From Oscillospiraceae bacterium (GTDB taxonomy: Bacteria; Bacillota; Clostridia; Oscillospirales; Acutalibacteraceae), in the NCBI GenBank assembly GCA_031288555.1, contig JAITRE010000029.1:3621-67620 (forward strand): a stretch of 64,000 nucleotides of DNA, read 5' to 3'. The translations under genes were made by a program, and so were the position numbers. Positions 10,846 through 32,947 of the stretch are shown here, one piece after another (position 1 is the first letter of the stretch; each line of letters opens with the position of its first letter). The notes under the pieces are model-generated. The model made no database searches. It worked only from the letters and a program-made list of their open reading frames with translations, and was not told where the DNA came from.

Positions 10846-10904
10846 AAATTTTAATTTATTTTTTTAAATTTTTGGAGTTATTTTTAGATTTTTAGGGGTT
10901 TTAT

Positions 10905-11650: not shown

Positions 11651-12688
11651 ATGTTCTCAAGGGATATTGGCATTGATCTCGGAACAGCTAATACTTTAGT
11701 ATTTGTTCGACACAAAGGAATTGTAATGAGAGAGCCTTCTGTTGTTGCAGTTGATATAAGAACAGATACGGTGCTAGCTGTAGGGTCGCAAGCTAAAAAC
11801 ATGATAGGTAGAACTCCCGGCTCTATAGTTGCTGTACGTCCACTCAAAGATGGTGTTATAGCTGATTTTGATGTTACAGCTACTATGCTTAAGCATTTTA
11901 TAAGAAAAGCTTCCAAGCCAGTCTTATTCGGAGGGAAGCCGAGGCTTGTGGTTTGTATTCCTTCTGGTGTTACAGAGGTTGAAAGACGTGCTGTGGAGGA
12001 TGCTGCGCGCCAAGCTGGAGCAAAAGATGTTGAACTCATAGAAGAACCTATGGCTGCAGCGATAGGGGCAGGGCTGCCTGTTGCTGAGCCAACTGGCAGT
12101 ATGGTTGTAGACATTGGAGGAGGTACATCTGAAGTTGCTGTTATATCACTAGGAGATATTGTTTCTGCTTGTTCTGTTCGTGTTGCAGGGGATAAATTTG
12201 ATGAGGCCATTATTTTTTATATTAAAAAGAAACATAATTTATTGATAGGCGAAAGAACAGCCGAAAACATAAAAATTGAATTAGGCTCAGCATTTCCTGA
12301 TCCAGAAAAAGAAAAAATTTCTATTGAAATTAAAGGGCGAAACCTTTTAGATGGATTACCAAAGCACATTATTATAACTGACGAAGAAATAAGAGAAGCT
12401 TTGAAAGATCCTCTTTCTGTTATAGTTGATGCCATAAAGAACACACTCGAGAACACTCCTCCTGAACTGTCTGCTGATATTATAGATCACGGTATAGTTT
12501 TAACAGGTGGAGGAGCTTTGCTGCCTAGACTTGACAAATTAGTTTCAGAAGAGACAAATATGCCTGTTAGAGTTGCAGAGACTCCCCTTGATTGTGTTGT
12601 TGATGGAACTGGTAAACAATTAGGTTTAACGATGCCTTCCGAGTATTATAAAGCACAAAGAAGAAAAAAAGTTAGAAGTCGCAATTAA
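11651..12688 (+). CDS. mreB: Rod shape-determining protein MreB
   Basis: [17 protein letters not shown] start at ATG 11651 after GGAGGT, although the ORF opens at 11612. Actin-fold motifs [11 protein letters not shown] and LTGGGALL are present. Confidence 0.93.
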
Positions 12689-16384: not shown

Positions 16385-17767
16385 TTAAGTTTCTTTTGTA
16401 ACTTCTTTTAATAGTTTAGCGGCGATTGGCACAGCTTCTTCAAAACCAGATCCTGCATTTTCGACTAAAACAATGAAAGCTACAGGATGTTTCTCGTTTT
16501 GTAAAAATCCTGTTACCCACGCATGAGGCTTTTTTTCTCCTCCTACTTCAGCTGTACCAGTTTTTAAACATGTGTTAAAATTATGAAATTTATAAAAAAT
16601 AGAACTCTTCGCAGTGTAAGACATCATCTCTTTAACCTTATTCGCTACATCTTTCGTCGTATATCTTATACAATTTTCTTCAGAATTCTTTGATTTCCTA
16701 TGGTTTAAAAAATTATTTTTATTTTCTTTTATTATTTTTGGCATTACAGCAACGCCTTCGTTTGCTATAGCCCCAACTATAGTTAACATATGAAGGGGGT
16801 TTACTAAATTTTTATATTGTCCTATCCCAGACCATGCGACAGAAGCTTTGTTTGCATCAGATAAATTAAAATAACTTTCTTTTGTTTCGCCAATATCTGT
16901 CTTTATAGGCTTGTTAAAACAAAGTTTCTCAGCTGTGCGAATCATATTATTTTTTCCAAGAGTCATTGCAAAATTGCCTAAAACTATATTGCACGATTCT
17001 TTTAATCCTTCTTTAAGACCTATTTTTCCGTGATATCCTGCACAAGTTATTTTTTCATTTTCTACTATTTCCTTTCCCTTGCATTCAAATGTTTTTTCTA
17101 AAGCTTCTTTTGGTATATTTTCAAATGTACAAATGGCTGTTACTAATTTAAAAATAGAGCCTGGAACAAAATTTGCAGATAATATCTTATTTAAAAAAAC
17201 AGCGTCGTAATCTTTATTTTTATTGCTACTTATATCGTTTGGCAAATTTTTTATATCAAGCGTTGGCGTGCTAACCATGCATAAAACTTCTCCCGTTTTG
17301 TAATTATACAAAGCCACGGCGCCCTTGTGATCTTTAAGTTCCGAAAGAGCAAGTTTACAAAGCTTGCTATCTACATTTAAGTAAACATCAGATTTTTTTC
17401 TTAAAAAACTAGGAAGATCAATCCCGGATAAAAAATTATATCCAAAAAGTTTATCTCGAAATTTGTTTTGTATAGATGTAGAAATATTAAAAGATTCATC
17501 TCCTACTAAATGAAAAACAGCTTTTCTTATTTGAGAATCTTCATTATAAATTCGTTTTCCGTCAATACTTTCAGCAAGAACTGTTGAATTAGTATCGTAA
17601 ATTCTACCCGCGTCTGCAAAGGAATTCAGCGAAAGATGTAAATTATAAGGTTTAAAAGCCCATTTTTCTGCATTTGTAGAAAATTTGGTTATTAAAAATA
17701 TCATACCGCTAAAAAAAGACAAGACTAAAAGTAAAAGAATTATTGATCTTTTTCGAGAGTTCTTCAA
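16385..17767 (-). CDS. Class B penicillin-binding protein (PbpA-like transpeptidase)
   Basis: N-terminal TM helix with SIFK (SxxK), SCN (SxN) and KTGTAE (KTG) motifs. It lies immediately downstream of the FHA-SEDS gene. Confidence 0.8.
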   Translation of the reverse strand: MKNSRKRSIILLLLVLSFFSGMIFLITKFSTNAEKWAFKPYNLHLSLNSFADAGRIYDTNSTVLAESIDGKRIYNEDSQIRKAVFHLVGDESFNISTSIQNKFRDKLFGYNFLSGIDLPSFLRKKSDVYLNVDSKLCKLALSELKDHKGAVALYNYKTGEVLCMVSTPTLDIKNLPNDISSNKNKDYDAVFLNKILSANFVPGSIFKLVTAICTFENIPKEALEKTFECKGKEIVENEKITCAGYHGKIGLKEGLKESCNIVLGNFAMTLGKNNMIRTAEKLCFNKPIKTDIGETKESYFNLSDANKASVAWSGIGQYKNLVNPLHMLTIVGAIANEGVAVMPKIIKENKNNFLNHRKSKNSEENCIRYTTKDVANKVKEMMSYTAKSSIFYKFHNFNTCLKTGTAEVGGEKKPHAWVTGFLQNEKHPVAFIVLVENAGSGFEEAVPIAAKLLKEVTKET

Positions 17768-17900: not shown

Positions 17901-19625
17901 TTATTTTAACGAATACGTACGATCGTCAGAAGCTTTTATGAAGGCGAGTAAGCCCCAAACTGAAACTAAACTTGAGCCTCCTAAACTTAAGAATGGCAAA
18001 GTAACTCCTGTTAGTGGTAAAACATCTGTTGAACCGAATACATGAAGACAAGATTGAAAAACAAGAATTCCGCCAGCTGTGCAAGAAGCTATTGAATAAA
18101 AAGTAGATCTGCATCTTTCACTATAACTTCTTGAAAAAAGTGCAATGAGCGCAATTGAAAAAGTGACGGAAATTCCTACAATTAAACCTAATTCTTCAGA
18201 AATAGTTGAAAACATAAGGTCGCTAGTTCCAGCAAATATATATCTTAATTTTCCATTTCCGGAGCCAACTCCAATTAAGCCCCCACTTGCTAAATAAGTA
18301 AGAGCACGACTTTGTTGATATCCTACTCCTTGCGAGTTCTCAAAAACATGTTGCCACACAGAAAATCTTTCTGCTATATAAGGTTTGAATTTTAATATTA
18401 AAAACATTCCAATAAGTGCTGCAGAACACGAAAGAATAATTGTACGAATACTTCCAGATCTCATAAACGAACATATTAAAAAAGCTACAAAAAACACGCA
18501 AGCTGTTCCAAAATCTTTCATAAAAAATAAACAACATATACAAAAAGCTGAAAAAAGAATAAATCCACTTAAATTTTTAGTTGTTTGAAGTTTGTCAAGT
18601 GTTGAAGCTCCTGAAAAAACAAAAGCAACTTTTATAAATTCAGAGGGTTGTATCGATATTGGTCCTATAAAAATCCAATTTTTAGAGCCGTTGTGCTCTT
18701 TTGCTATAAGTAAATTTAAAATAAAAAAAAGTGTAGCAAAAATTGTTATTAATAATCTTAATTTTGATATTTTTTCTAAATTTTTAATAATTTTTATTAA
18801 TGAACAAAATAAAACTATCCCAATTATTAGACTAACAATTTGAATTTGTATTACTTCAACTTTGTTTTGAGAAGCTAAAATCAAAATTCCTGTGCCCGAT
18901 AAAAATATGCCAATAGCCTCTAGCTCAAAATTTTTTCTTTTAAAAACAATTTTTGTTATAAAAAAGAAAACCCAAGATATCATCAAAATTATTAAAAATG
19001 GTACCAAACAGTTGAACATTTTATCTAAATCAAAAATATCTTTAAATTCGAAATTACTTTTTTCTTTTTTTACTTCTCTAATATGAGTAAAATATGTTTC
19101 AAGCGAAATTAGAAAATGAAAAAAGTTTATTATTAAAAGAAGTAAAAATTGATTAATATGTCGTTTATTAGATGTTATTTCCGATGAAGATAATATGTCA
19201 AATCCGTCATCAAAGTTAAGTGAATCTTTTTTTTTAACAATTAAAGAATTCGATCCTAAAGTCAAAATATCATCTATGTATATTTGTGTTGGTTTTTTAA
19301 TTTTTTCTTCATTAACATAAACGCCAGATTTAGAATTTGTGTCAGAAATTATCCATCCTTTTTCACGCCTAAACAACACAGCGTGATCTCTAGAAACTGT
19401 AGGATCATTAAGGACTATATCAGAACTTCTACTTCTTCCTATAGAATTTTCCCAAAACATTACAGGAATCTGTTTTTTTGCTGTTTTATTTTTTAAAGAG
19501 ATTAGAGGAGTTTTGATTCTTTGGTTGTTTTTTAATGATTTAAAAGTTGTATACACAATAATAATACTGAAAAAAGGTAGAAGTAGTCGTACAAAAAACA
19601 TTAATGTTTCTACCACATAATACAA
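17901..19625 (-). CDS. FHA domain fused to a SEDS (FtsW/RodA/SpoVE family) peptidoglycan polymerase
   Basis: The N-terminal third has FHA signatures (IGRSRSSDIVL...VSRDHAVL...SKSGVYVNEEKI). The C-terminal ~380 aa is a multi-TM SEDS domain (...GYQQSRAL...LPLTGVTLPFLSLGGSS). Confidence 0.8.
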   Translation of the reverse strand: MYYVVETLMFFVRLLLPFFSIIIVYTTFKSLKNNQRIKTPLISLKNKTAKKQIPVMFWENSIGRSRSSDIVLNDPTVSRDHAVLFRREKGWIISDTNSKSGVYVNEEKIKKPTQIYIDDILTLGSNSLIVKKKDSLNFDDGFDILSSSEITSNKRHINQFLLLLIINFFHFLISLETYFTHIREVKKEKSNFEFKDIFDLDKMFNCLVPFLIILMISWVFFFITKIVFKRKNFELEAIGIFLSGTGILILASQNKVEVIQIQIVSLIIGIVLFCSLIKIIKNLEKISKLRLLITIFATLFFILNLLIAKEHNGSKNWIFIGPISIQPSEFIKVAFVFSGASTLDKLQTTKNLSGFILFSAFCICCLFFMKDFGTACVFFVAFLICSFMRSGSIRTIILSCSAALIGMFLILKFKPYIAERFSVWQHVFENSQGVGYQQSRALTYLASGGLIGVGSGNGKLRYIFAGTSDLMFSTISEELGLIVGISVTFSIALIALFSRSYSERCRSTFYSIASCTAGGILVFQSCLHVFGSTDVLPLTGVTLPFLSLGGSSLVSVWGLLAFIKASDDRTYSLK

Positions 19626-20466: not shown

Positions 20467-20784
20467 ATGGAAATTTTAGATTTTATACCACAAAACACAT
20501 ACATAGTCTGCGTAGTTTTATTTATTGTTGGGATGATATTAAAACAAACTCCATTTATTAAAAATTGGGTGATACCTTATATTCTAAGTATTGTAGGAAT
20601 TTTGATTTGCAATTTTGTATTGGAGCCAGGCGTTTATGCCACGATGCAAGGAATATTGACAACAGGATTCACAGTCTACATTCATCAATTAAGTAAACAG
20701 GGAAGTCAAATATTTACCAGTAAAGAAAAAGATTCAACAAAAAGTTCTTTTAATAGTAAATTTAAAACGACAGTTTCAAAATAA
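20467..20784 (+). CDS. Phage-holin-family-like small membrane protein (orphan)
   Basis: 105 aa with 2-3 TM helices and a polar Lys/Ser tail. ILKQTPFIKNWVIPYILSIVGI...YIHQLSKQ resembles Firmicute phage holin families from memory. AAAGGAG RBS is present. Confidence 0.45.
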   Translation: MEILDFIPQNTYIVCVVLFIVGMILKQTPFIKNWVIPYILSIVGILICNFVLEPGVYATMQGILTTGFTVYIHQLSKQGSQIFTSKEKDSTKSSFNSKFKTTVSK

Positions 20785-21221: not shown

Positions 21222-21503
21222 TCAGTCAACAGTGTACACACAAGCGCGTTTATACTTTTTTTTAAAACTTTCAAACTTAACTTTACCATCTATTAATGAA
21301 AAAAGAGTGTCATCTTTACCTTTTCCAACATTTTTTCCTGGATGAATACGAGTGCCACGTTGTTTAACAATAATGTTGCCTGCAATTACATATTGACCAT
21401 CGGCGCGTTTAATACCCAATCTTTTTGACTCAGAATCTCTTCCGTTTTTTGTGGAACCCATTCCTTTTTTGTGAGCAAATAATTGAATATCAACTTTAAT
21501 CAT
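21222..21503 (-). CDS. rpmA: 50S ribosomal protein L27 with N-terminal propeptide
   Basis: [24 protein letters not shown]. This is the Firmicute-type extension that precedes the conserved (A)HKK start. Confidence 0.95.
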
Positions 21504-21854
21504 TTAAATCAACCTTTCAGTTTTTACTAGCAAAGAATTAGAATATTCTTTTGCAATCTCTAGCAAATGAATTTCAAAACCTTTTAATACGTCGTGAGTC
21601 GCCTTTAAATCACCGGACAAAGCTCTAAAGTACAGCGCGCCGTTATTTTTTTCTAGGGAAACGTGCGCCTTTACAAGTAAAACTCCCGTAATTGTATTTG
21701 CAGCCATACAAGCCGCAGAGGAAACAGCTGCACATACGATATCGTATTCACCAGGTTCACTGTGTTCAGAGTGACCGTTTACATCAAACCCTAAAAACAT
21801 GTTATCTTTAATTAACAGTTTAGCAACAATTATAAAAATCACTCCAAACAACAA
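21504..21854 (-). CDS. prp: Ribosomal-processing cysteine protease Prp (YsxB family)
   Basis: GHSE...YDIVCAAVS His/Cys dyad, positioned between rplU and rpmA. The exact start is uncertain (TTG/GTG candidates). Confidence 0.85.
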   Translation of the reverse strand: MLFGVIFIIVAKLLIKDNMFLGFDVNGHSEHSEPGEYDIVCAAVSSAACMAANTITGVLLVKAHVSLEKNNGALYFRALSGDLKATHDVLKGFEIHLLEIAKEYSNSLLVKTERLI

Positions 21855-21898
21855 AAAAACAAAATTGCATTAAAACTCTACTAACATAGCCGTTTAAT

Positions 21899-22207
21899 TT
21901 AAGAATTTATAGACTTAATTTTAATCATACTATACAGTTGACGATGACCAAGCTTACGACTTTGGTTCTTTTTAGGTTTATAAGTAAACACAGTAATTTT
22001 TTTAGCTTTACCGTTCTTTACAACTTCGGCCGAAACTTTAGCTGAAGCTACATAAGGTAAGCCAACTTCTAATTTTCTACCGTTTGAAACCGCAAGAACT
22101 TTCAAATCAATAATTTCACCGCTTTGAGCGTCAAGCTTATTAGTAAATAAAACATCATTTTGCTTTACTTTGTGTTGTTTACCGCCAACTTCTATTATTG
22201 CATACAT
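21899..22207 (-). CDS. rplU: 50S ribosomal protein L21
   Basis: MYAIIEVGGKQHKV canonical start at ATG 22207, although the ORF opens at 22243. Confidence 0.93.
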   Translation of the reverse strand: MYAIIEVGGKQHKVKQNDVLFTNKLDAQSGEIIDLKVLAVSNGRKLEVGLPYVASAKVSAEVVKNGKAKKITVFTYKPKKNQSRKLGHRQLYSMIKIKSINS

Positions 22208-22264
22208 AATTATACAAAAACACCCACTTTTAAAACGTTTCAATAAATTAAAAAACTTGTTTAA

Positions 22265-22293
22265 ATGTTATCATTCTGTAAATCATTTGTCAA
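22265..22293 (-). promoter_or_regulatory. Candidate sigmaA promoter of rplU operon
   Basis: Minus strand reads TTGACA-17 nt-TAACAT, about 60 nt upstream of the rplU ATG. The -35 lies only about 10 nt beyond the stop of the adjacent peptide gene. Confidence 0.45.
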
Positions 22294-22303: not shown

Positions 22304-22651
22304 TTAAAACTTTAAAAAAGAGCAAATGCCATCTCCTATTTTATCTCCTATGTCAGTTCCAATACCTTCTAGCTTGTTTCCACTTTTAAACAAACCACCA
22401 ACAAGGTTACCTACAGCTTTGCCTAAAGTTTTACCTATCGCTCCTCCTCCTGAAACATTCATTAAATCTTCATTTGATAGTGGGCCTTTAATTTCTTTAA
22501 GTTGATTTTGAAATTCTTCAAAGGAACACCCGTTTAGATAAGGAGAAACTAACTTTCTTTTTTCTTCAGTTGATTTAGCATTTTCAATTTTCTTTCTTAA
22601 CTCATCATTATTTTCTAAAATTTCTAAAAATTCTTGAGCACAATTCTTCAT
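22304..22651 (-). CDS. Nif11-like-leader / double-glycine precursor peptide, paralog A (69-aa leader + 46-aa Gly-rich core)
   Basis: The leader MKNCAQEFLEIL...SPYLNGCSFEEFQNQLKEI...EDLMNVSGG is shared with two neighbours. GAAAGGAAG RBS is present. Confidence 0.7.
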   Translation of the reverse strand: MKNCAQEFLEILENNDELRKKIENAKSTEEKRKLVSPYLNGCSFEEFQNQLKEIKGPLSNEDLMNVSGGGAIGKTLGKAVGNLVGGLFKSGNKLEGIGTDIGDKIGDGICSFLKF

Positions 22652-22725
22652 AAATTCAACTTCCTTTCAAAATAAAATTTTTAATAAACAATAAAAATTA
22701 TTGCAAGACTTATTATTTGTTAAAA
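22652..22725 (-). promoter_or_regulatory. Conserved upstream module of paralog A (RBS plus candidate promoter/operator)
   Basis: This ~74-nt block is nearly identical upstream of all three paralogs. It contains AATAATAAGTCTTGCAAT and, on the minus strand, TTGCAA-17 nt-TAAAAA. Confidence 0.4.
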
Positions 22726-22839
22726 GACAAAAAATTATACTAAAAACCTCAGAGAACACTTTAATTTAAAAAATCCGTTTCATATATATCTTAATTTATA
22801 ATCAGATAATAATTTTTATAAGAATTAAGATTTTATTTG

Positions 22840-23211
22840 TTAAAATTTTAATTTATCGCAAAATTCTTCAGTTGCATTGCTTCCGATGTTACCATACTTA
22901 GTTTCTAACAAACGTCTTTTACCTTTACCAAGTATTGAAGAATCATAAAGTAGCTTTCCAACGCATTCACCTACAAGCTGGCCTACTCTTTTACCTACTT
23001 GTCCTCCTCCTGAAACATTCATTAAATCTTCATTTGATAGTGAGCCTTCAATTTCTTTAAGCTGATTTTGAAACTCTTCAAAGGAACACCCGTTTAGATA
23101 AGGAGAAACTATTTTTTTTCTTTCTTCAGTCGACTTCGAGTTTTCAACTTTCTTTCTTAATTCTTCATCATTTTTCAAAATTTCTAAAAATTTTTGAGCA
23201 CAATTCTTCAT
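22840..23211 (-). CDS. Nif11-like-leader / double-glycine precursor peptide, paralog B (69-aa leader + 54-aa core)
   Basis: Leader MKNCAQKFLEILKNDEELRKKVENSKSTEE...EDLMNVSGG. The core ends FCDKLKF. Confidence 0.7.
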   Translation of the reverse strand: MKNCAQKFLEILKNDEELRKKVENSKSTEERKKIVSPYLNGCSFEEFQNQLKEIEGSLSNEDLMNVSGGGQVGKRVGQLVGECVGKLLYDSSILGKGKRRLLETKYGNIGSNATEEFCDKLKF

Positions 23212-23285
23212 AAATTCAACTTTCTTTCAAAATAAAATTTTTTATAAACAATAAAAGTCATTGCAAGACTTATTATTTGTTAAAT
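23212..23285 (-). promoter_or_regulatory. Conserved upstream module of paralog B
   Basis: Same block as at 22652-22725, with a few substitutions. Confidence 0.4.
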
Positions 23286-23346
23286 TTCTGCAGACCTATT
23301 GTATTTTCAAAAGACCAAAGTGTAAAAAATTTTCTAAAGAATGTTG

Positions 23347-23724
23347 TTAAAATTTTAATTTATCGCAAAAATTCCCAGTTAATTTCTCTCCATATCCACT
23401 TATTTTTTTGCGAAACGCTTTTGCATCTTCATCCTTTTGATTTTTAAACAGCAGTTTTCCGATATACCTACCCACAAATTTACCTAAGTTCCAGCCTACT
23501 CCTTTATTATCTCCTTTTCCTCCTGCAACATTTGTTAATTCTTCTTTCGACAATGAGCTTTCAATTTTTTTTAATTGCTTTTGAAATTCTTCAAAAGGAC
23601 ATCCGTTTAAATAAGGAGAAACTATTTTTTTTGTTTCCTCAGTCGACTTCGAGTTTTCAACCTTCTTTCTTAATTCTTCATCATCTTTCAAAATTTCTAA
23701 AAATTTTTGTGCACAGTTTTTCAT
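23347..23724 (-). CDS. Nif11-like-leader / double-glycine precursor peptide, paralog C (69-aa leader + 56-aa core)
   Basis: Leader MKNCAQKFLEILKDDEELRKKVENSKSTEE...EELTNVAGG. The core ends FCDKLKF. Confidence 0.7.
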   Translation of the reverse strand: MKNCAQKFLEILKDDEELRKKVENSKSTEETKKIVSPYLNGCPFEEFQKQLKKIESSLSKEELTNVAGGKGDNKGVGWNLGKFVGRYIGKLLFKNQKDEDAKAFRKKISGYGEKLTGNFCDKLKF

Positions 23725-23795
23725 AAGCTTAACTTCCTTTCAAAATAAAATTTTTAATAAGCAATAAAAGTTATTGCAAGACTTATTATTTATTT
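23725..23795 (-). promoter_or_regulatory. Conserved upstream module of paralog C
   Basis: Same block as upstream of paralogs A and B. Confidence 0.4.
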
Positions 23796-24132
23796 AAAAA
23801 ATGAGATTATGCTAAATTTTTTAAAAACACTTTACTTTTAGATATAAAAGTATCTTATAAAAATAAGTATATATTGTTAAATTTGCATTTGATATGGTAG
23901 ATTTTGATAAATAAATTTTATAAAATTAGTTTAATTTCAATACGAAAAATGACATATTTTGTGCGATCTAAAATGAAGAAGGAACTTCTGTTTTTCTTTG
24001 AAATAAAGAAACAAAAAAATTCTTAGTTTTTTTAAAAGATTTGTTTTAATTTTGATAAATAAAAAAGTTTTTTACAATTATTTACTAAAATTTTAATATT
24101 TAAAAATTTAGTTATTTAGTACAAAAAAATCC

Positions 24133-24161
24133 TTGCATTTTATTCAAATTTATTCTAAGAT
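24133..24161 (+). promoter_or_regulatory. Candidate sigmaA promoter of the dcw (mraZ) operon
   Basis: TTGCAT-17 nt-TAAGAT, about 60 nt upstream of the mraZ ATG. Confidence 0.5.
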
Positions 24162-24175
24162 AACTTTATACGAAA

Positions 24176-24199
24176 GTGGTAGATAGTGGTTGGCAGTGG
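24176..24199 (+). promoter_or_regulatory. Putative MraZ operator (three direct AGTGG repeats at 10-bp phasing)
   Basis: GTGG occurs at 24176, 24186 and 24196 (aAGTGGtagatAGTGGttggcAGTGGt), between the candidate -10 and the mraZ start. Confidence 0.55.
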
Positions 24200-24222
24200 T
24201 TTCATATCCCAGAGGTTTTGTT

Positions 24223-24642
24223 ATGCTTATTGGAGAATATGAACATAGCTTAGATGCAAAGGGTAGGGTAATTGTTCCAGTTAAGTTTCGCGAAGATTTG
24301 TCTGATATTTTTTACATTACTAAAGGTATTGACGGTTGTTTGTTTGTTTTTTCAAAAGAAGAGTGGAAAAAACTTGAGCAGAAAATAATCACAATGTCAA
24401 TTTTCAAATCTCGTGGTATTCAGCGTTTCTTTTTTTCAGGGGCAGCTCAAATTGTTGCTGACGCAAATGGGCGAATACTTATACCTCAACCACTTCGCAA
24501 TTTTGCAAGTCTTAAAAAAGACGTAATTTTTTTAGGTACAATAACTCGTGTGGAAATTTGGGATAAACTACGCTGGAAAAAAGCAAGCGATTCTCTTACA
24601 GATGAAAGTATAAAGCAAGCTATGAGTTTAATGGACATCTAA
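24223..24642 (+). CDS. mraZ: Transcriptional regulator MraZ
   Basis: MLIGEYEHSLDAKGRVIVPVKFR plus a second DANGRILIP SpoVT/AbrB-like repeat. The ORF opens at 24190. Confidence 0.93.
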   Translation: MLIGEYEHSLDAKGRVIVPVKFREDLSDIFYITKGIDGCLFVFSKEEWKKLEQKIITMSIFKSRGIQRFFFSGAAQIVADANGRILIPQPLRNFASLKKDVIFLGTITRVEIWDKLRWKKASDSLTDESIKQAMSLMDI

Positions 24643-24659
24643 GAAGAGGTGTTGTTTTT

Positions 24660-25592
24660 ATGAAAACTATACACAAACCTGTTTTACTTTCAGAAAGTAT
24701 TGAATTATTAGATATAAATCCAAATGGTGTGTATGTGGATGCAACCGCTGGTTTTGGAGGGCATTCCGAAAAAATACTTAATGTGTTAAAAAGCGGAAGT
24801 CTTTTTATGATTGATCAAGATCCAGATGCTATAGAATTTATAAGAGAAAAGTTTAAAGGAAATTCTAATGCAATTATAGTAAAAGGTAATTTTTTAAATA
24901 TTAAAGACTTAATTAAGCCTTTTGGTGTTGAATTTGTAGATGGAATACTTTTGGATTTAGGGGTTTCTTCTTTTCAACTTGACTCTTATAAGCGTGGGTT
25001 TTCGTATAATAAAGAAACTTCATTTTTAGATATGCGTATGAGCAAAGAAGGTTTATCTGCAAAAGATGTTATTAACACTTACTCGTTTAAAAGTTTAAAA
25101 AAAATAATTTGGGAATATTCTCAAGAAAAATTTTCAGGGAATATTGCAAAAGCTATAGTTAAAAAAAGAGAAAGCACAGTTATAAAAACTGTTGGCCAGC
25201 TTGTTGAAATTATAAAATCAGCGATTCCTATTAAGTTTTTTAAAAAAAGAAATGCTCATCCTGCAAGAAAAACTTTTCAAGCTCTAAGAATAGAAGTAAA
25301 TAATGAGCTTGATGTTTTAAAAAAAGGGCTTGATGCAGCATTTTCTGCTTTAAAGCCAAAAGGTAGACTTGCTGTTATAACTTTTCATTCACTAGAAGAT
25401 AGAATAGTAAAGGAAAAAATAACTAATTGGCGTAAAGATTGCGTTTGCCCAGCAGATTTTCCTATGTGTATATGTGAAAAAACTAAAGAGTGTCATTTAA
25501 TTACAAAGAAACCTATAGTTCCTTCAAAAGATGAACTTAAAGATAATTTAAGAAGCAGAAGCGCTAAGTTAAGGGTTATTGTTTCGGTTTAA
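24660..25592 (+). CDS. rsmH: 16S rRNA (cytosine1402-N4)-methyltransferase
   Basis: HKPVLL, DATAGFGGHS, LLDLGVSSFQLD and SLEDRIVK motifs. Confidence 0.95.
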   Translation: MKTIHKPVLLSESIELLDINPNGVYVDATAGFGGHSEKILNVLKSGSLFMIDQDPDAIEFIREKFKGNSNAIIVKGNFLNIKDLIKPFGVEFVDGILLDLGVSSFQLDSYKRGFSYNKETSFLDMRMSKEGLSAKDVINTYSFKSLKKIIWEYSQEKFSGNIAKAIVKKRESTVIKTVGQLVEIIKSAIPIKFFKKRNAHPARKTFQALRIEVNNELDVLKKGLDAAFSALKPKGRLAVITFHSLEDRIVKEKITNWRKDCVCPADFPMCICEKTKECHLITKKPIVPSKDELKDNLRSRSAKLRVIVSV

Positions 25593-25626
25593 TCTTTAAT
25601 AATTTTATAGTAAGTTTGGTGAAATT

Positions 25627-26064
25627 ATGTTGTTTAAAAAGAATTTAGCTTATGATCTATCGTTGTTTGAAGAAGCGCCGGAAGATTGTTTTAACAGCAA
25701 AAGTAATGTAATTAAAATATCTAAAACAAAATTTATAAAAAACAGAAATATTTTAAGAAAAAAAACAATAACTTCAGTGATATGTGTGTCAGTTGTTGTT
25801 TTATGTGGCGCTACTAATCTTGTTTTAGGGCAAGTGAAACTTTCAGAATTAACTCAACGAGTTTTTAATTCTAAAAAATTATTGGAAGAAAGTAAAAATG
25901 ATGAGACTAGACTTAAAATGCAACTCGAATCTTTTTTATCTCTTGGAGAAATTGAAGAATATTCAAAAAAATTGCTTATGATGAAAAAACCAGAACCTTA
26001 TCAGATAGAGTATGTTAATATTTTCGAGCAGAACAAAGCTTTATTTGGGCGAAGGATTGATTAA
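25627..26064 (+). CDS. ftsL: Cell division protein FtsL-like
   Basis: Position between rsmH and the division PBP. Single TM helix followed by a coiled coil and ...EIEEYSKKLLMMKKPEPYQIEYV. Confidence 0.65.
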   Translation: MLFKKNLAYDLSLFEEAPEDCFNSKSNVIKISKTKFIKNRNILRKKTITSVICVSVVVLCGATNLVLGQVKLSELTQRVFNSKKLLEESKNDETRLKMQLESFLSLGEIEEYSKKLLMMKKPEPYQIEYVNIFEQNKALFGRRID

Positions 26065-26248
26065 TTTCTTTGCTTGTCATAAAGACTTTGATTTTTAAAT
26101 AAGTTTTAAATGATGCAGTGTTTTATTTTGAATAAATTTTAAAATTTTTAAAGACAATTCTATCTAGGATTAAACTTATATTTTCTTTGCATTAAATGTG
26201 TAGGACGCTTTAAGTAAGGTTAAAATAATAAACAGAGGTTTATTTTTT

Positions 26249-28468
26249 ATGGCAAAAGGCACTACTGTTAGAATGTGGCGTAGATCCACTTTTGTTTTAT
26301 TTATGTTAATAGCAGTAGGATTTGGCACGATTGTTTTAAGGCTTTTAAATTTACAAATTTTTCAAGGAAAAGCTCTTAGACAAATGGCCTTAGACCAACA
26401 GTTAAAAGATACAGTGATATCTGCCCAACGTGGCACTATATACGATAGAAATATGAAGCCTGTTGCTCAAAGCGCAACTGTTTTTACTGTGGTTTTAGAG
26501 CCAGCATATATAAAAACTGATGAAAAGAAAAAACTTATAGCTTCTGGTTTGTCTGAAATTCTACAATTAGAAGAGGATGAAATAATAAAAAAAGCAAGTA
26601 AAAAATCTTATTATGTCATAGTAAAAAGAAAAATAGAGAGCGATGTTAAAGAAAAAATAGTTAATTTTCAAAAAGAAAAAAAAATAAAAGGTGGCATTAG
26701 GCTCATAGAAGACTACAAAAGATACTACCCTTATGGTCGCTTTGCTTCAAATGTTATAGGTTTTACGGGATTTGATAATCAAGGTCTTTCTGGGATTGAA
26801 AATTTTTACGATAAAGATTTGATGGGGGAATTTGGCAGAATTGTGACTGCTAGAAATGCTGTTGGTACCGATATGCCTTTTGAATATGAGCAAATGATTC
26901 CGGCTAAGAGCGGTCACAATCTTGTTTTGACGATAGATGAAAGTATTCAACATTCTATGGAAAAATATTTAGAAGAAGGAAGAATCAACAACAGAGTAAA
27001 GAACGGTGCGGTTGCTATATTAATGGACGCCGAAGAAGGAGATATTTTAGGATTGGCCAGCGGAGGATTTGATTTAAATTCTCCGTTTGAAATAGTTGAT
27101 TTACAAGCTAAAACTGAAATTGAATCTACAAAAGAAGAAGATCGTTCAAAGTTAAAAGGAGATTTTTTGCAAAAGCAATGGAGGAATAAAGCCGTTAGCG
27201 ACACTTATATGCCAGGTTCTACTTTTAAAATTATAACTGCTTCAATGGCTTTAGAAGAAGGAGTTGTGAGCGAAAATTCTTCTTTTAATTGTACGGGTAG
27301 TGTTATTCCTTTTGAAGGAGCAAGGCGAATACATTGTCACAATCGAAGAGGCCACGGAGTTCAAGATTTTCAAGGAATAATAAGTCACTCTTGTAATCCG
27401 GGATTTATAAGCTTGGGTCATGCTTTGGGTGCTGAGAACTTTTATAAGTATTACAAGCTTTTTGGTTTTACACAAAAAACTGGAATTGATCTTCCGGGTG
27501 AGGCAAAAGGAGTGTTTTTTAATAAAGACGGTTCGATGGCACCTATGGATCTTACTGTTGCTTCGTTTGGACAAAACTTTACTATTACACCAATGCAATT
27601 GGTGACAGCGGTTGGCGCAGCTGTTACTGGAAAATTGGTTGAACCCCATGTTGTAAAACATATAACTGATGAAAACGGAAATATATTAAAGACTAAAGGA
27701 AAAAGCATTAAAAGGCACGTTGTTTCTGAAAATACATCAAAAAATATTTGTGAATTACTTAAAAATAATGTTGCTACAGGATCTGGTCGAAATGGGTCGG
27801 TTCCAGGGTACAACATAGGTGGCAAAACAGGTACGTCTGAAAAAGTTGGTAACAGTGGTCCGGGTGGCAAAGATTACATAGCTTCTTTTTGTTCTTTTTT
27901 TCCAACTGATTTTCCAAAATACGTTCTTTTCATTATGTACGATACTCCGAAAGGAGATTATTATTACGGTGGGCTTATCGCGGCTCCTGTTGCAGCTAAG
28001 ATTATGTCGGAAATTTTGCCTTATTTAGGAATAAACAAAAGATACACAGAAGAAGAGCTTGAAAAACTTGATACAAGTACACCTTCTTTGATAGGGTTGC
28101 CGATTGAAAAAGCAAAAAGCGAATTAATTCAAAATCAGTTAAAATTCTCTATAAAAGGTGATGGAGAAACTGTTGTTTCTCAAATTCCTGACGCTGGGTC
28201 TGGAATCCCGAAGGATGGAACGGTTGTTATATACACAAACAAGGAAAATTCTTCCAAAAAAATAAAAGTTCCAAATTTTGTAGGCCTTAGTGCGCTAAAC
28301 GCAAATAAACTTGCTTTTTCTTTTGAACTCAACATGAGGGTTTCAGGTGTGCCTACACAATCAAACGAAGAAGTGGTAGCATCTAATCAAAGCATTTCCC
28401 CGGGTGAGTTTGTAGATCCTGGAACAGTTATTTGTGTAGAATTTATTCAAAAGGATGATATAGATTAA
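26249..28468 (+). CDS. Class B penicillin-binding protein with two C-terminal PASTA domains (SpoVD/PBP2B type)
   Basis: STFK, SHSCN and KTGTSE motifs, plus two PASTA-like repeats near the C-terminus. It occupies the dcw position. Confidence 0.88.
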   Translation: MAKGTTVRMWRRSTFVLFMLIAVGFGTIVLRLLNLQIFQGKALRQMALDQQLKDTVISAQRGTIYDRNMKPVAQSATVFTVVLEPAYIKTDEKKKLIASGLSEILQLEEDEIIKKASKKSYYVIVKRKIESDVKEKIVNFQKEKKIKGGIRLIEDYKRYYPYGRFASNVIGFTGFDNQGLSGIENFYDKDLMGEFGRIVTARNAVGTDMPFEYEQMIPAKSGHNLVLTIDESIQHSMEKYLEEGRINNRVKNGAVAILMDAEEGDILGLASGGFDLNSPFEIVDLQAKTEIESTKEEDRSKLKGDFLQKQWRNKAVSDTYMPGSTFKIITASMALEEGVVSENSSFNCTGSVIPFEGARRIHCHNRRGHGVQDFQGIISHSCNPGFISLGHALGAENFYKYYKLFGFTQKTGIDLPGEAKGVFFNKDGSMAPMDLTVASFGQNFTITPMQLVTAVGAAVTGKLVEPHVVKHITDENGNILKTKGKSIKRHVVSENTSKNICELLKNNVATGSGRNGSVPGYNIGGKTGTSEKVGNSGPGGKDYIASFCSFFPTDFPKYVLFIMYDTPKGDYYYGGLIAAPVAAKIMSEILPYLGINKRYTEEELEKLDTSTPSLIGLPIEKAKSELIQNQLKFSIKGDGETVVSQIPDAGSGIPKDGTVVIYTNKENSSKKIKVPNFVGLSALNANKLAFSFELNMRVSGVPTQSNEEVVASNQSISPGEFVDPGTVICVEFIQKDDID

Positions 28469-28511
28469 ATTTTAAATTAGAAAAATTAGTAACAAGGAGG
28501 AAGGTGGAATA

Positions 28512-29549
28512 TTGAATAAAACTTGGGTTATAATTGCAGCAATTACATCTTTTTTTTTAACGTGTTTGCCCGCAGAAAAAATAATTAAACGTTTAACTAA
28601 ATTAAAATATGGCCAAACTATATTAGAAATTGGTCCCTCTTGGCACAAAAAAAAAGAAGGTACTCCAACAATGGGCGGGATTATATTTATATTCGGGATA
28701 GTAATTTCTTTTTCTATGTGCCTTCTTCTAAATTATATTTTTGTTGATAATTTTCTTAACATAAATACTAAAAATCTTTTATCGCTTTTAAAAATTTTTG
28801 CTGGGATTTTAATGGCAATTGCTTACTCAGTAGTAGGATTTATAGATGATTATATTAAAATATCAAAAAAAAGAAATTTAGGTTTAAGTGGAAAACAAAA
28901 ATTAATTTTTCAATTTTTAATAGCATTTGTTTATCTTTTTTTTATTTATTTTATAAAACAATATTTTTCAGACGAGCCATTTAATACAATAGAAATTCCA
29001 TTTTTAGGCAATTATAATTTTGGTATTTTTTATTTTATAATTTGTTCAATAATGATTGTTGGTATAGTTAATGCTGTAAATCTCACTGATGGCATAGATG
29101 GCCTTACTGCATCTGTTACTTTTTTTACTTCTGTACTTTTAATGATGTCTTCATCATTTGTAAATATTTCTTATTTAGATGTAATTTCAGCTTGCCTTGC
29201 TGGAGGGTGTCTTGGTTTTTTGATGTTTAATTTTCACCCCGCAAGAGTTTTTATGGGGGATACAGGGTCTTTATTTTTAGGAGGAATGATTTGTTCTATA
29301 GTCTTTGGGCTTGAAAAACCTTTATTGTTAGTTAGTTCTGGTATAGTATATTTAATTGAAATGTTTTCAGTGGTATTGCAAGTTATTTATTTCAAAGTGA
29401 CCAAAGGCAAGCGACTTTTTAAAATGAGTCCAATTCATCATCATTTTGAAATGATAGGCTGGTCTGAAGCTAAAATTTGCATAGTATTTGGATTTGTTTC
29501 TGTTATTGGAGGAATTTTTTCTTTATTGTATTGCGTTTTTTCAAATTAA
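28512..29549 (+). CDS. mraY: Phospho-N-acetylmuramoyl-pentapeptide transferase
   Basis: TTG start after AGGAGGAAGGTGG. KEGTPTMGGIIF, NAVNLTDGIDGL and GDTGSLFLGG motifs. Confidence 0.93.
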   Translation: MNKTWVIIAAITSFFLTCLPAEKIIKRLTKLKYGQTILEIGPSWHKKKEGTPTMGGIIFIFGIVISFSMCLLLNYIFVDNFLNINTKNLLSLLKIFAGILMAIAYSVVGFIDDYIKISKKRNLGLSGKQKLIFQFLIAFVYLFFIYFIKQYFSDEPFNTIEIPFLGNYNFGIFYFIICSIMIVGIVNAVNLTDGIDGLTASVTFFTSVLLMMSSSFVNISYLDVISACLAGGCLGFLMFNFHPARVFMGDTGSLFLGGMICSIVFGLEKPLLLVSSGIVYLIEMFSVVLQVIYFKVTKGKRLFKMSPIHHHFEMIGWSEAKICIVFGFVSVIGGIFSLLYCVFSN

Positions 29550-29588
29550 AATTTATTAAAATAGTTTTTTATTTTTTTGGAGGCTAAA

Positions 29589-30803
29589 ATGAAAGATAAA
29601 AGAGTTCAAAAAATAAAACCAATTGTTCATAAAAACTTTTTTAAAAATTCAAATTTTAAAATTAAAAAAAGAAAAAAAACTTTTGGCGAAAGTGTAAGAA
29701 TTTTTTCAACAAGATCTGGAATAGACTTAGTTTTCTGCACAATAACACTTGTATTATTAGCAATAGGACTTGTTATGTTATTTTCGGCTTCATTTTTTAA
29801 TGCTTATCATTATCAAAAAGGTGATAGTTATTTTTTTATAAGAAGTCAATTAATGTGGGCTGTTTTAGGAATTATTGTTTTTTTTATTACTTCTTTTTTT
29901 GATTATCGCAAACTAAAAAAAATAGCAATTCCTACATTAATTTTATCTTTTCTTCTACTTATTTTAGTTTTGTTTATGCCGATTAGAAATGATGTTAGAA
30001 GATGGATACCGTTAGGTCCTGTTAGTTTTCAAGCCTCTGAAATTACTAAGTTTGCTATAGTGCTGTCTTTTGCTTATCTTATTTCGAAGAATTTTAAAAG
30101 AATGAGTACTTTTAAGTATGGTGTTTTGCCGTATTCTATTATTTTGTTGTTTACAGCGTTTTTACTATATTTAGAACCGCATATTTCTTGTCTTGTAATA
30201 GTAGTTTTGTTGTCTGGCGGAATGCTTTACATAGGGGGAATAAAGCTTAGATGGTTCGGTGTTGTGCTTTCAGCAGCAATTTTAGCGGTGGTTTTTCTGT
30301 TAGTTTCTAACAAACTTTCATATGCAAATGAAAGAGTAATAGGTTGGCTTGACCCATTTAACTCAACTGCTGACACGTGGCAAACAAGGCAAGGCCTTTA
30401 TGCTATAGGTTCAGGAGGATTATTTGGCGTTGGACTTGGAAAATCAAGACAAAAATATTTATTTATACCAGAACCACATAATGATTTTATATTTTCAGTA
30501 GTTTGTGAAGAGCTCGGATTTATTGGAGCTTTGCTTATAATATTGCTTTTTGTAATGTTAATTTGGCGAGGCATAGTTATTTCTATGAGAGCCAGGGAAA
30601 GATTTGGTGCTCTTTTGGGAATAGGTCTTACAGCGCAAGTAGGTTTGCAGGTTATTTTAAATATTTTTGTTATAACAAATACTATTCCTAACACAGGAAT
30701 AAGTTTACCATTTTTTAGTTATGGAGGAACTGCTCTTGTTATGCTTTTAGCACAAATGGGAATTATTCTTTCAATTTCTAGAACATCAAGTATTGAAAAG
30801 TAA
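29589..30803 (+). CDS. SEDS peptidoglycan polymerase FtsW/SpoVE
   Basis: ATG 29589 follows GGAGG. Multi-TM protein with PEPHNDFIFSVVCEELG and LPFFSYGGT motifs. Confidence 0.88.
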   Translation: MKDKRVQKIKPIVHKNFFKNSNFKIKKRKKTFGESVRIFSTRSGIDLVFCTITLVLLAIGLVMLFSASFFNAYHYQKGDSYFFIRSQLMWAVLGIIVFFITSFFDYRKLKKIAIPTLILSFLLLILVLFMPIRNDVRRWIPLGPVSFQASEITKFAIVLSFAYLISKNFKRMSTFKYGVLPYSIILLFTAFLLYLEPHISCLVIVVLLSGGMLYIGGIKLRWFGVVLSAAILAVVFLLVSNKLSYANERVIGWLDPFNSTADTWQTRQGLYAIGSGGLFGVGLGKSRQKYLFIPEPHNDFIFSVVCEELGFIGALLIILLFVMLIWRGIVISMRARERFGALLGIGLTAQVGLQVILNIFVITNTIPNTGISLPFFSYGGTALVMLLAQMGIILSISRTSSIEK

Positions 30804-31228
30804 TTTTAAAATTATTTGTTTTAAAAATTTAAAAATAAATAAACAATTTCTTTATTAAATGCGATTAAAATATTTTTAAAATAAAAAAATTTTTGAACTT
30901 CTGCGAATTAATTTTATAAAATCTTTTATTATCAAAGATTGACAATATTAAAATTTTTGAGTTTTGTTTTGATTATTAAGTTTATAACACAAAAATTATT
31001 ATTTTTTAGCAAAGTTTATTATTAATCAAATAGGATTAATTGACTATAAAAGGCATATTAAATAATTAATTTTTAATTTTATTAAAATTTTTTTAAAACG
31101 ACGACATAAAATGATAAAATAATAACTAAACAGTGGTTAATCTTAAAAGTAGATGGTTCTTTAAGCGCTATTTTTTTCTGCTACATATTTAAAAATTCTA
31201 TTTTTACAATTTGGAGGTGATTTTTAAA

Positions 31229-31537
31229 GTGGGAGTAAAGATCACCCAGGAAGATATTAAATGTACTGTTTTGTTAGAAGGAGACATTGATCATCACAAT
31301 GCACGTTTTATGCGACAATCTATAGATGATTATATCAGCAAAAATCATCCTAAGGTTTTGTGTCTTGATTTTAGTAGAATAAAATTTATGGATAGCTCCG
31401 GAATAGGTTTGATAATGGGTAGGTTTAAGTTTATAAAGCTTTTGGGCGGGGAACTTGAAGTTGTGGGAGCTTCTAATTCAATTAAAAAGATTATTAAACT
31501 TTCTGGTTTAGAGTCTTTGGGAATTATTAAAAAATAA
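31229..31537 (+). CDS. spoIIAA: Anti-sigma F factor antagonist SpoIIAA (STAS)
   Basis: FMDSSGIGLIMGRF contains the phosphorylatable Ser. The likely GTG start at 31229 follows GGAGGTG, although the ORF opens at 31211. Confidence 0.85.
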   Translation: MGVKITQEDIKCTVLLEGDIDHHNARFMRQSIDDYISKNHPKVLCLDFSRIKFMDSSGIGLIMGRFKFIKLLGGELEVVGASNSIKKIIKLSGLESLGIIKK

Positions 31538-31585
31538 AATTTTTAAGTTTTTGATAAATATTTTCACAGAAAGAAGGGGGAAGTT

Positions 31586-32032
31586 TTGAAATTTGTAAAT
31601 GAAATGAGACTTGAATTTATTAGCTGTTCTTCTAATGAAAGTTTTGCGCGCGTTTCTGTATCCGCCTTTGTTTCTCAACTTGACCCAACTATTGCGGAAC
31701 TTTCTGACATAAAGACCGCTGTTTCAGAAGCTGTTACCAATTGTATAGTACATGCTTATAATCAAGATTTTGGAATTATTTACATATCAGTAAAAATTTT
31801 TGAAAATGGTCATATAGTTATTAAAATTAGGGATAAGGGTTGCGGTATTTCAAATGTTGGTCAAGCTATGCAGCCTTTGTTTACTACAGGAGGAGAAGAG
31901 CGTTCAGGTCTTGGTTTTGCTGTTATGAAAAGCTTTATGGACGATGTTAAAGTTACATCTAAACCCAATAAAGGCACGATGGTTACGCTTGAGAAAAACA
32001 TAATAAGACGAACAATTAAAGCAAGGAATTAA
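31586..32032 (+). CDS. spoIIAB: Anti-sigma F factor / serine kinase SpoIIAB
   Basis: EAVTNCIVHAY N-box, DKGCGI and RSGLGF G-boxes. TTG start after AAGGGGGAAG. Confidence 0.9.
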   Translation: MKFVNEMRLEFISCSSNESFARVSVSAFVSQLDPTIAELSDIKTAVSEAVTNCIVHAYNQDFGIIYISVKIFENGHIVIKIRDKGCGISNVGQAMQPLFTTGGEERSGLGFAVMKSFMDDVKVTSKPNKGTMVTLEKNIIRRTIKARN

Positions 32033-32164
32033 TGCTGTTTTTAAAAAATAATAGCAGTGAGCTTAATGTTAAATATTTTAGATTTTTATATTAAATTGTT
32101 TAATTTTAAAAAATTTTGTTTTAATTTTAAAATTTTTAAAGTTATAAAACACTAAGGAAAATAT

Positions 32165-32830
32165 ATGGAAAATAAGTGCCAAAAGAAAATTATTATAAAC
32201 GAAAACATTGGCCTTGTTCATCTTTGTATTAAAAAATTTGTAGGAAAGGGCATAGAGTACGACGACCTTTTTCAAGCTGGGTCGTTAGGTCTTGTAAAAG
32301 CGGCTGCTAAGTTTGATTATACTAAAGGTTTGAAATTTTCTACTTATGCTATTCCTGTAATTTTGGGTGAAATAAAACTTTTGTTTCGCGAAGGTGGTTC
32401 AATAAAAGTTAGCAGAAGTCTTAAATCTATGGCTATTCGTATATCAAGAGAACGCGAAAGTTTTTTTATTAAAAATGGTAGAGAGCCTTCTATTAATGAG
32501 CTTTCTAAAATTCTAGAAACAACCACCGAATTTATAACAGAAGCTATAAACTCAAGTTCAGTACCTATTTCTTTGACTATAGTTGACAATAAAAACAGTT
32601 CGGGTCAAATTGACATTCCCACAGAAGAAATAGAAGAAAATTTATCAGAGTGTATTTCTTTAAAGCAGGTTATAAGCGAATTACAGTCTTTCGACAGGAT
32701 ACTTATAATATTAAGATTTTTTAAAAAACATACCCAAAGCGAAACAGCGAAAATTTTAAAAACTACTCAGACTCAAGTTTCACGACGAGAAAAAATTATT
32801 TTATCAGAACTTAGAAGGAAATTATTGTAA
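32165..32830 (+). CDS. sigF: Sporulation sigma factor SigF
   Basis: DLFQAGSLGLVKAAAKFD...FSTYAIPVILGEIKLLFREGGSIKVSRSLK (region 2) and a C-terminal HTH. It follows spoIIAB. Confidence 0.88.
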   Translation: MENKCQKKIIINENIGLVHLCIKKFVGKGIEYDDLFQAGSLGLVKAAAKFDYTKGLKFSTYAIPVILGEIKLLFREGGSIKVSRSLKSMAIRISRERESFFIKNGREPSINELSKILETTTEFITEAINSSSVPISLTIVDNKNSSGQIDIPTEEIEENLSECISLKQVISELQSFDRILIILRFFKKHTQSETAKILKTTQTQVSRREKIILSELRRKLL

Positions 32831-32871
32831 TTAACATAACAAAAAGTAAACATAACAAAACTCATTTAACT

Positions 32872-32947
32872 TGGTGAGCCATCGGAGATTCGAACTCCGG
32901 ACACCTTGATTAAAAGTCAAGTGCTCTACCAACTGAGCTAATGGCTC
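32872..32947 (-). tRNA. tRNA-Lys (anticodon UUU), CCA encoded
   Basis: Reverse complement GAGCCATTAGCTCAGTTGGTAGAGCACTTGACTTTTAATCAAG...GGCTCACCA folds as a cloverleaf. Confidence 0.9.

Follow-up and report, generated by a model that had tools for sequence, protein, structure and literature searches.

The N11P family of precursor peptides is characterised by a leader of 69–70 amino acids with the motif ELSDEELEAVAGG (Haft et al., 2010). Families of this kind have been listed for Pelotomaculum and Desulfitobacterium, their precursor genes are often located far from the genes for modification and export, and a three-part exporter, described by the models TIGR03794, TIGR03796 and TIGR03797, has been tied to NHLP and N11P precursors (Haft et al., 2010). 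Nif11-type leaders are also carried by LahA1-9 in a Lachnospiraceae, and LahT150 cleaves these leaders of the Clostridia relative concerned, Lachnospiraceae bacterium C6A11. The two-peptide bacteriocins form another relevant group, in which GxxxG motifs are proposed to mediate helix-helix interaction in every characterised member. Here we describe an array of three tandem genes (g1, g2 and g3) in a stretch of 64,000 nucleotides (hereafter the window) of contig JAITRE010000029.1, which is 79.6 kb long, has a G+C content of about 27–30% and belongs to the metagenome-assembled genome (MAG; locus tags LBT82_*) of an uncultured Oscillospiraceae, one of the gut-type Clostridia. The reading that we prefer, with a probability of roughly 0.6, is that the array belongs as a satellite to a dispersed system whose peptides are exporter-processed, probably unmodified and class II-like, and act on membranes.

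The array consists of three open reading frames (ORFs) of 115, 123 and 125 amino acids on the minus strand, as claimed by an earlier reading of the same DNA (the original prediction). Gene g1 (LBT82_03330; 115 amino acids; 22304–22651) contains leader codons at 22445–22651, encoding 69 residues that end in NVSGG, followed by a core at 22307–22444 (46 amino acids, isoelectric point (pI) 9.0, 26% Gly). Gene g2 (LBT82_03335, MDR3179065.1; 123 amino acids; 22840–23211) has its leader at 23005–23211 and a core at 22843–23004 (54 amino acids, pI 9.3, two Cys), while g3 (LBT82_03340; 125 amino acids; 23347–23724) has its leader at 23518–23724, ending in NVAGG, and a core at 23350–23517 (56 amino acids, pI 9.9).

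Each gene is preceded by a block of about 70 nucleotides, also read on the minus strand, which is 85–92% identical among the three. The block of g1 (22652–22725) comprises a Shine-Dalgarno-like GAAAGGAAG, a TTGCAA hexamer resembling a -35 element and a 31-nucleotide element (22684–22714) containing the palindrome CAATAA-N3-TTATTG. Blocks of the same conserved type precede g2 (23212–23285, with the 31-nucleotide element at 23244–23274) and g3 (23725–23798, element at 23757–23787), the latter displaying a perfect 7-bp palindrome, GCAATAA/TTATTGC. Judged from this arrangement, each block presumably represents the promoter/operator of its own gene. The element and its palindrome were sought in the window and in all loci fetched for comparison and occur solely at g1, g2 and g3, hence no regulon is definable.

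Window positions 23082–32918 are reproduced with 0 mismatches in an independent Logan assembly (run SRR14710895), which covers the complete g3 and the start of the next copy and whose contig ends (at 23082) only inside the repeated leader DNA; we therefore regard the tandem array as real and not as an assembly artefact. The repeat also includes a 41-nucleotide exact stretch common to g1 and g2 (22442–22482), and g3 is the only one of the three proteins listed with Logan as a source.

The first 69 residues of g1–g3 can be aligned gap-free, the last five being NV(S/A)GG. The two glycines are residues 68–69, preceded by L-12, E-9, D/E-8, L-7 and V-4, with the leader end reading LSNEDLMNVSGG in g1 and g2 and LSKEELTNVAGG in g3. 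The leader consensus as first written, including the double-glycine end with Val at -4, Leu at -7 and acidic residues at -8/-9, was thus reproduced. Its description as almost invariant was overstated, with 49 of the 69 columns being invariant, pairwise identities of 71–86% at the amino acid and 80–90% at the nucleotide level, and synonymous divergence (dS) of 0.27–0.84. At this divergence the ratio of non-synonymous to synonymous change (dN/dS, Nei-Gojobori) is only 0.14–0.25, and consequently the conservation of the leader appears functional rather than a mere result of recent duplication. All three leaders are acidic (pI 4.9–6.3). In the AlphaFold2 model, residues 1–57 form a confident four-helix bundle (predicted local distance difference test, pLDDT, 81–90) followed by a double-glycine linker of low confidence. 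Comparison of the precursor model with the PDB by Foldseek retrieved nothing similar (all E > 1).

The leader had been assigned to the Nif11 type from its length and pattern. In a model search it aligns with TIGR03798 (leader_Nif11) practically from end to end, protein residues 5–69 matching model positions 6–68 of 68 with E-values of 6e-4 to 9e-6, and it has homologous relatives of the same type. The assignment stood in this respect; in terms of scores it fell short, as the 20.0, 25.8 and 25.2 bits of g1, g2 and g3 lie below the curated cutoff of 32.3, and the Pfam Nif11 family (PF07862, gathering threshold 23.8) gives borderline results, with g1 under the threshold (22.9), g2 over (24.4) and g3 at it (23.8). 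The TIGR03798 scores below cutoff account for the deposited annotation of the proteins as hypothetical. A length of 69 amino acids and a double-glycine end of the ELSDEELEAVAGG type are those of N11P leaders, and L-12, D/E-8, L-7, V-4 and the two glycines agree with the published recognition consensus of peptidase-ABC exporters (PCATs). Homology, length and motif identify the leader as a divergent one of the Nif11 type (N11P), which the strict curated cutoff does not call a member.

Homologues are scarce and distant. A word-indexed homology search with g2 against 5.8 billion proteins found nothing beyond g1–g3, and scanning GTDB species genomes and JGI metagenomes with the three-paralogue alignment yielded no relatives. 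An exhaustive HMMER search of 1.84 billion representative proteins with a profile of g1–g3 recovered 25 distant relatives, all via the leader. Of these, 22 were aligned with g1–g3, and 18 of the 25 sequences in that alignment match TIGR03798 at E <= 1e-3 (best 2.6e-19). The alignment defines a sub-branch of the leader with the motif PYL(D/N)G.S.EEF, and conservation halts at the double glycine. Two variants of the leader family were observed in passing: P0014 is a repeat-rich protein of 432 amino acids with an N-terminal Nif11-like double-glycine leader, and P0011 (L012, 7995–8645) holds two leader copies in tandem within one ORF.

Downstream of the double glycine, the cores of 46–56 amino acids were originally described as hypervariable. 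This did not hold. The three cores are homologous, with 40–44% mutual identity over 42–48 aligned positions, and have an identically placed G-x3-G-x3-G-x3-G ladder together with a C-terminal C-x-x-L-K-F motif. They evolve faster than the leader (dN/dS 0.44–0.69 at dS of about 1, Nei-Gojobori), and positive selection is not indicated. All three are cationic (pI 9.0–9.9), contain 16–26% Gly and only one or two Cys, and their hydrophobic moment of 0.51–0.57 is that of amphipathic rather than transmembrane-hydrophobic segments. One Cys near the C-terminus is kept in all of them, whereas a T-x-x-x-C arrangement occurs in g2 and g3, not in g1. AlphaFold2 predicts a helix for residues 70–92 at moderate confidence, with a disordered tail. 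Three bacteriocin models, NF038034, NF038035 and TIGR03949, those of lactococcin G, enterocin 1071 and cerein 7B, give sub-threshold matches (9.5–16.7 bits against cutoffs of 21.5–37) which span the double glycine and the first ~20 core residues. The sole relatives that align into the core, weakly and via a similar ladder of small residues, are P0010 and P0030 from a sister MAG.

The contigs of the nearest leader relatives show two arrangements, one linked to an exporter and the other among housekeeping genes. In L012 and L018, the order is a gene for a periplasmic binding protein, an HlyD-like gene (TIGR03794, 167 bits against a cutoff of 156), a peptidase-ABC gene (the PCAT; TIGR03796, 941 against 853), a second ABC gene (TIGR03797, 723 against 709), one to five tandem precursors and a gene for a protein of ~294 amino acids containing DUF7005. 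The precursors at such loci bear the same PYL.G.S.EEF...NVSGG leader type, and no known tailoring enzyme family adjoins the exporter-linked arrays, the neighbouring DUF7005, to which no function is assigned, being set aside. The other arrangement is seen in L010 and L011, where two precursors sit beside htpG in housekeeping surroundings. It is also that of L014, from the sister Oscillospiraceae MAG LBJ95, where three double-glycine peptide genes (two with the leader of g1–g3 and one with a short double-glycine leader) accompany a DUF7005 gene.

The linkage to DUF7005 was followed in 80 fetched metagenome loci (L020–L099) and five further loci, all scanned locally. In the latter, the DUF7005 genes lie at 10654–11538 (L012), 10820–11701 (L014), 3043–3927 (L016), 7786–8670 (L018) and 3285–4157 (L019). 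Among DUF7005 loci having at least 8 kb on both sides, 16 of 19 contain a gene with a C39 peptidase domain within ~10 kb. Of the 15 close DUF7005 relatives for which the upstream sequence extends over at least 1.5 kb, 14 have one to six ORFs matching the leader profile no more than 3 kb upstream on the same strand. DUF7005 is thus a conserved 3' neighbour both of such arrays and of C39 ABC exporters. Paralogue arrays of two to six genes are seen in related loci, as are three tandem paralogues in the window. The cores in the related arrays are diverse and short (median 28 amino acids), and 50 of 62 are without Cys, a composition that argues for unmodified products.

DUF7005 (PF22541) is a soluble protein of ~290 amino acids with more than 1,100 homologues. 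Its signature is an invariant HExxH followed by HDE (…RREHECTHYFTKRF…HDEL.AD…). The AlphaFold2 model has a pLDDT of 93, and no structural relatives were retrieved by Foldseek (best E = 0.7, TM <= 0.23) or by a sequence profile search of the PDB (best E = 0.12). The domain is absent from the searchable literature.

A DUF7005 gene of the organism itself, LBT82_03685, is located on another contig of the same MAG, in a 14-kb locus (L019) from the same sequencing run. Directly upstream of it, at 3023–3244, is a gene for a peptide of 73 amino acids with a short textbook double-glycine leader (…LDDSELDSVLGG) and a hydrophilic core. The organism therefore holds at least four substrates of the double-glycine type and a DUF7005 partner gene. 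Short acidic or hydrophilic double-glycine peptides also stand directly ahead of DUF7005 in L012, L014 and L016. Downstream of the DUF7005 gene in L019 are an AAA+-like protein and then a radical SAM/SPASM protein of 344 amino acids (6620–7654).

From the gene structure, leader homology, cleavage motif, purifying selection, core properties and context of relatives, all computed here, we infer that the products of g1–g3 are cleaved, exported, left unmodified and antimicrobial. Each gene would be transcribed from its own conserved promoter/operator and translated from its own ribosome-binding site. The folded, acidic leader of 69 amino acids may keep the peptide inactive and dock to a peptidase-ABC exporter of the N11P/NHLP type (TIGR03796 with TIGR03797 and TIGR03794) encoded elsewhere; docking is suggested because the leader is homologous to N11P leaders, its recognition positions are intact and the relatives are linked to such an exporter. 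The C39 domain would then cut after Gly69, at the flexible double-glycine site, and the core would be exported. Mature, probably unmodified cores could insert into target membranes and associate there as amphipathic helices with a GxxxG ladder, in the manner of class II and particularly class IIb bacteriocins and perhaps in combination, an activity proposed on the basis of core composition and established knowledge of that class. The array itself would be a satellite, with the remainder of the system in this organism including the DUF7005 gene and the fourth double-glycine peptide on the other contig.

Several results weigh against this reading. In addition to the TIGR03798 scores below cutoff, no bacteriocin model is matched above cutoff by the cores, and on their own the cores have neither an NCBIfam family nor an ORF of the 85 related loci as a match. 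The window and both contig flanks were annotated over ~78 kb, which together with the 14-kb L019 locus amounts to ~92 kb of the MAG. Over the ~78 kb of contig there is no C39 peptidase or PCAT, no HlyD-type exporter partner and no DUF7005, and next to the array there is no small membrane gene of the immunity type. L019 contains no C39 gene over 3.2 kb on the upstream side of DUF7005 and 10 kb on its downstream side, and L014 no PCAT within 8.5–10.8 kb on either side. The 31-nucleotide element is not present at the DUF7005 locus, leaving co-regulation of the two loci unsupported.

A more far-reaching and distinctly tentative proposal places the trio in an undescribed, widespread Clostridia system, in which Nif11-like double-glycine precursors, their cores mostly unmodified, would form arrays flanked by the NHLP-type three-part exporter and by DUF7005. 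DUF7005 would be a dedicated zinc peptidase, and in this lineage the system would have become dispersed, with g1–g3 as a satellite array served in trans. As a zinc peptidase, DUF7005 might remove or recycle the unusually large folded leader once C39 has cut, or might carry out a second processing step or an immunity step.

Candidates for processing and export encoded near the array were considered and set aside. Prp, the cysteine protease encoded just downstream, cleaves L27 at a site (…IQLF/AHKK) without counterpart in the precursors, and its adjacency looks coincidental. An HlyD/MacB pair (37–39 kb), an RND-adaptor-like gene (61.7–63.0 kb) and two ABC ATPases (42.2–44.0 kb) contain no C39 domain, and these transport genes show no resemblance to the TIGR03794/96/97 set beyond the generic ATPase domain. 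The HlyD_3 adaptor and MacB/FtsX-type permease genes adjoin each other at 37046–39375 on the plus strand with no neighbouring ABC ATPase ORF of at least 90 amino acids. In a 1.4-kb AT-rich gap beside this pair lies an ORF of 79 amino acids (39570–39809, minus strand) with a good ribosome-binding site and an N-terminus resembling a short double-glycine leader, MFMKKNKKQQKNNKIKNSDLKSVGGG. Its residues I-12, D-8, L-7 and V-4 fit if cleavage takes place after GGG, and the hydrophilic core has many N, K and F residues. The ORF matches the leader profile weakly (E = 0.008 in a small local database) and no family, and may be a chance ORF.

Among the alternatives, the best surviving, though still unlikely, is that the peptides are exported and cut at the double glycine but serve in signalling or as structural components of the envelope or spore, as proposed for MAM of Faecalibacterium, a member of the same family. 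MAM, an abundant envelope protein, carries a double-glycine leader and is believed to be processed by a PCAT. The missing immunity gene is in keeping with this role, as are the hydrophilic cores of many related arrays, which are not bacteriocin-like, and the position of the array between a division and cell-wall cluster and sporulation-related genes. However, the MAM motif MMMPANx(8,11)VxGG is absent and the leader comprises 69 rather than 21 amino acids; the cores are short, cationic, amphipathic and rich in GxxxG, which is the typical make-up of bacteriocins, and three diverging paralogues suit a toxin in an arms race better than a structural protein.

Somewhat less probable again is that g1–g3 encode true precursors of peptides made by the ribosome and modified after translation (RiPPs), tailored in trans by a LanM-type, radical SAM or other enzyme encoded elsewhere, as for prochlorosins. 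N11P was defined as a RiPP precursor family in which tailoring genes are often distant (Haft et al., 2010), a Cys is found in the C-terminal region of all cores, and the T-x-x-x-C of g2 and g3 could form one methyllanthionine ring. The radical SAM/SPASM gene of L019, 2.5 kb from DUF7005 in the same MAG, would be a candidate. Its product lacks CxxxCxxC in the N-terminus, its best NCBIfam matches, to GDL-motif and nif11-class-3 maturases, score far under the cutoffs (98 against 592 and 96 against 725), and it is not a conserved neighbour of DUF7005 elsewhere. It was set aside as a maturase, and may be a pseudo-radical-SAM protein. The original prediction had noted that no tailoring enzyme was in sight, which holds over the window and flanks, where no LanM, cyclodehydratase or SPASM-type maturase was found; over the full ~92 kb there is no LanM, cyclodehydratase or functional maturase. 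Each core has only one or two Cys and few Ser or Thr, g1 has no T-x-x-x-C, and the exporter-linked related arrays, with their predominantly Cys-free cores, likewise come without a known tailoring enzyme family.

It is improbable that the array is an orphaned relic, with the exporter lost in the lineage and the peptides either not made or remaining uncleaved in the cytoplasm. This would fit the lack of a PCAT beside the precursors or DUF7005 in both this MAG and LBJ95, unlike most other DUF7005 loci. On the other hand, the three ORFs are intact and retain conserved ribosome-binding sites and promoter-like blocks, purifying selection on the leader is clear even at dS of up to 0.84, a distance between precursor and exporter is a described trait of N11P, and the PCAT search covered ~92 kb. 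Very improbable is a role as small cytoplasmic Nif11-domain proteins with an incidental double-glycine motif. In its favour, the Pfam Nif11 match equals that to the N11P leader model in quality, and a folded domain of four helices is predicted for the leader. Against it, family-wide conservation ends exactly at the double glycine, none of the PCAT recognition positions is missing, the relatives have peptidase-ABC exporters in physical linkage, and the C-terminal portion is basic and rich in Gly, with disorder over most of its length.

The genomic setting of the array consists of housekeeping genes throughout the ~78 kb annotated. The array lies between a divergent mraZ-rsmH-ftsL-PBP-mraY-ftsW cluster and rplU-prp-rpmA. 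Its boundary on the latter side is marked by a promoter-like site for rplU (22265–22293, minus strand; TTGACA-17-(TG)TAACAT), immediately past the g1 stop and not part of the array, and no terminator-like hairpin was found between the array and rplU-prp-rpmA. In Firmicutes, rplU-prp-rpmA is usually followed by obg. In this genome rplU-prp-rpmA (21222–22243, minus strand) is without obg after it, and obg sits on the DUF7005 contig (L019, 12509–13837). Synteny anchored on Prp identified no close reference genome, the best match being 34% over most of Prp, or 52–58% over ~27 residues. The label of spore-former given to the host is backed by spoIIAA, spoIIAB and sigF-like genes at 31.2–32.8 kb of the window. 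Furthermore, an FHA-FtsW/RodA/SpoVE fusion of 574 amino acids, with the FHA domain N-terminal, is encoded at 17901–19625 (minus strand) with a transpeptidase gene downstream at 16385–17767. A membrane protein of 105 amino acids matching Phage_holin_5_2 (Hol44) is encoded at 20467–20784 (plus strand), outside any visible prophage. This ORF lies 440 nucleotides past rpmA and ~1.5 kb from g1; a link to the array could not be shown.

The analysis has a number of implications. A sub-branch of Nif11-type leaders is without annotation since it falls below curated cutoffs, and is consequently missed by annotation pipelines. The three peptides with a GxxxG ladder, without homologues among 1.8 billion representative proteins, are candidate antimicrobials against gut Clostridia. 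In addition, a leader subfamily that travels with the NHLP/N11P exporter and DUF7005 provides a concrete functional setting for this domain.

As regards novelty, the leader class had been taken to be rare outside cyanobacteria and proteobacteria, a view that is outdated given the Pelotomaculum and Desulfitobacterium families (Haft et al., 2010) and LahA1-9 of the Lachnospiraceae. With Nif11-type leaders in Clostridia and distant precursors already documented, the array is a divergent addition to a known class and not a new type of system. The part that looks new is the linkage to DUF7005, which is seen outside the window.

The closest described relatives are the N11P precursors (TIGR03798; Haft, Basu and Mitchell, 2010), for example prochlorosin ProcA and LahA1-9. 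These share with g1–g3 the leader of ~69 amino acids, alignment over the full model and the ...LS.E(D/E)L..V(S/A)GG end, as well as tandem paralogues, conservation that ends at the double glycine, precursors apart from export genes and, in relatives, the link to TIGR03794/03796/03797. The trio differs in its scores below cutoff, in the PYL(D/N)G.S.EEF subfamily motif and in two leader Cys unique to it. Family cores are short, hypervariable and rich in Cys, Ser and Thr, whereas those of g1–g3 have 46–56 amino acids, are mutually homologous and are poor in Cys. A LanM or cyclodehydratase partner is typical of N11P; g1–g3 have neither on ~78 kb, and the conserved partner of their relatives is DUF7005. 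Likewise, class II lanthipeptide precursors of the prochlorosin type combine LanM with paired Ser/Thr and Cys, in contrast to the single conserved Cys and lack of LanM on ~92 kb observed here.

MAM of Faecalibacterium resembles the trio in its Oscillospiraceae origin and its N-terminal double-glycine leader, which a PCAT is believed to remove. The sequences are unrelated, MAM having a 21-residue MMMPAN... leader, a structured cargo of 113 residues and an adjacent PCAT, while g1–g3 have neither the motif nor an adjacent PCAT.

In their cores, g1–g3 resemble class IIb bacteriocins, which have GxxxG or else AxxxA/SxxxS motifs, and further unmodified double-glycine peptides of class II (examples of these bacteriocins are lactococcin G, enterocin 1071 and plantaricin EF/JK), with which they share cationic, amphipathic GxxxG sequences, a predicted helix, adjacent genes for related peptides and a double-glycine leader, which in the bacteriocins is cut by a C39 ABC transporter, as we infer for the trio. 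Class IIb activity requires complementary peptides at roughly the same level. The leader of class IIb peptides has 15–30 amino acids and is unstructured, as opposed to the 69 amino acids and predicted four-helix fold of g1–g3. Class IIb genes are organised in one operon with an immunity gene, whereas in the trio every gene is preceded by a promoter-like block of its own, the array is not followed by a small membrane ORF and no curated model is passed. The array thus combines a divergent N11P-type leader with cores resembling those of class IIb bacteriocins.

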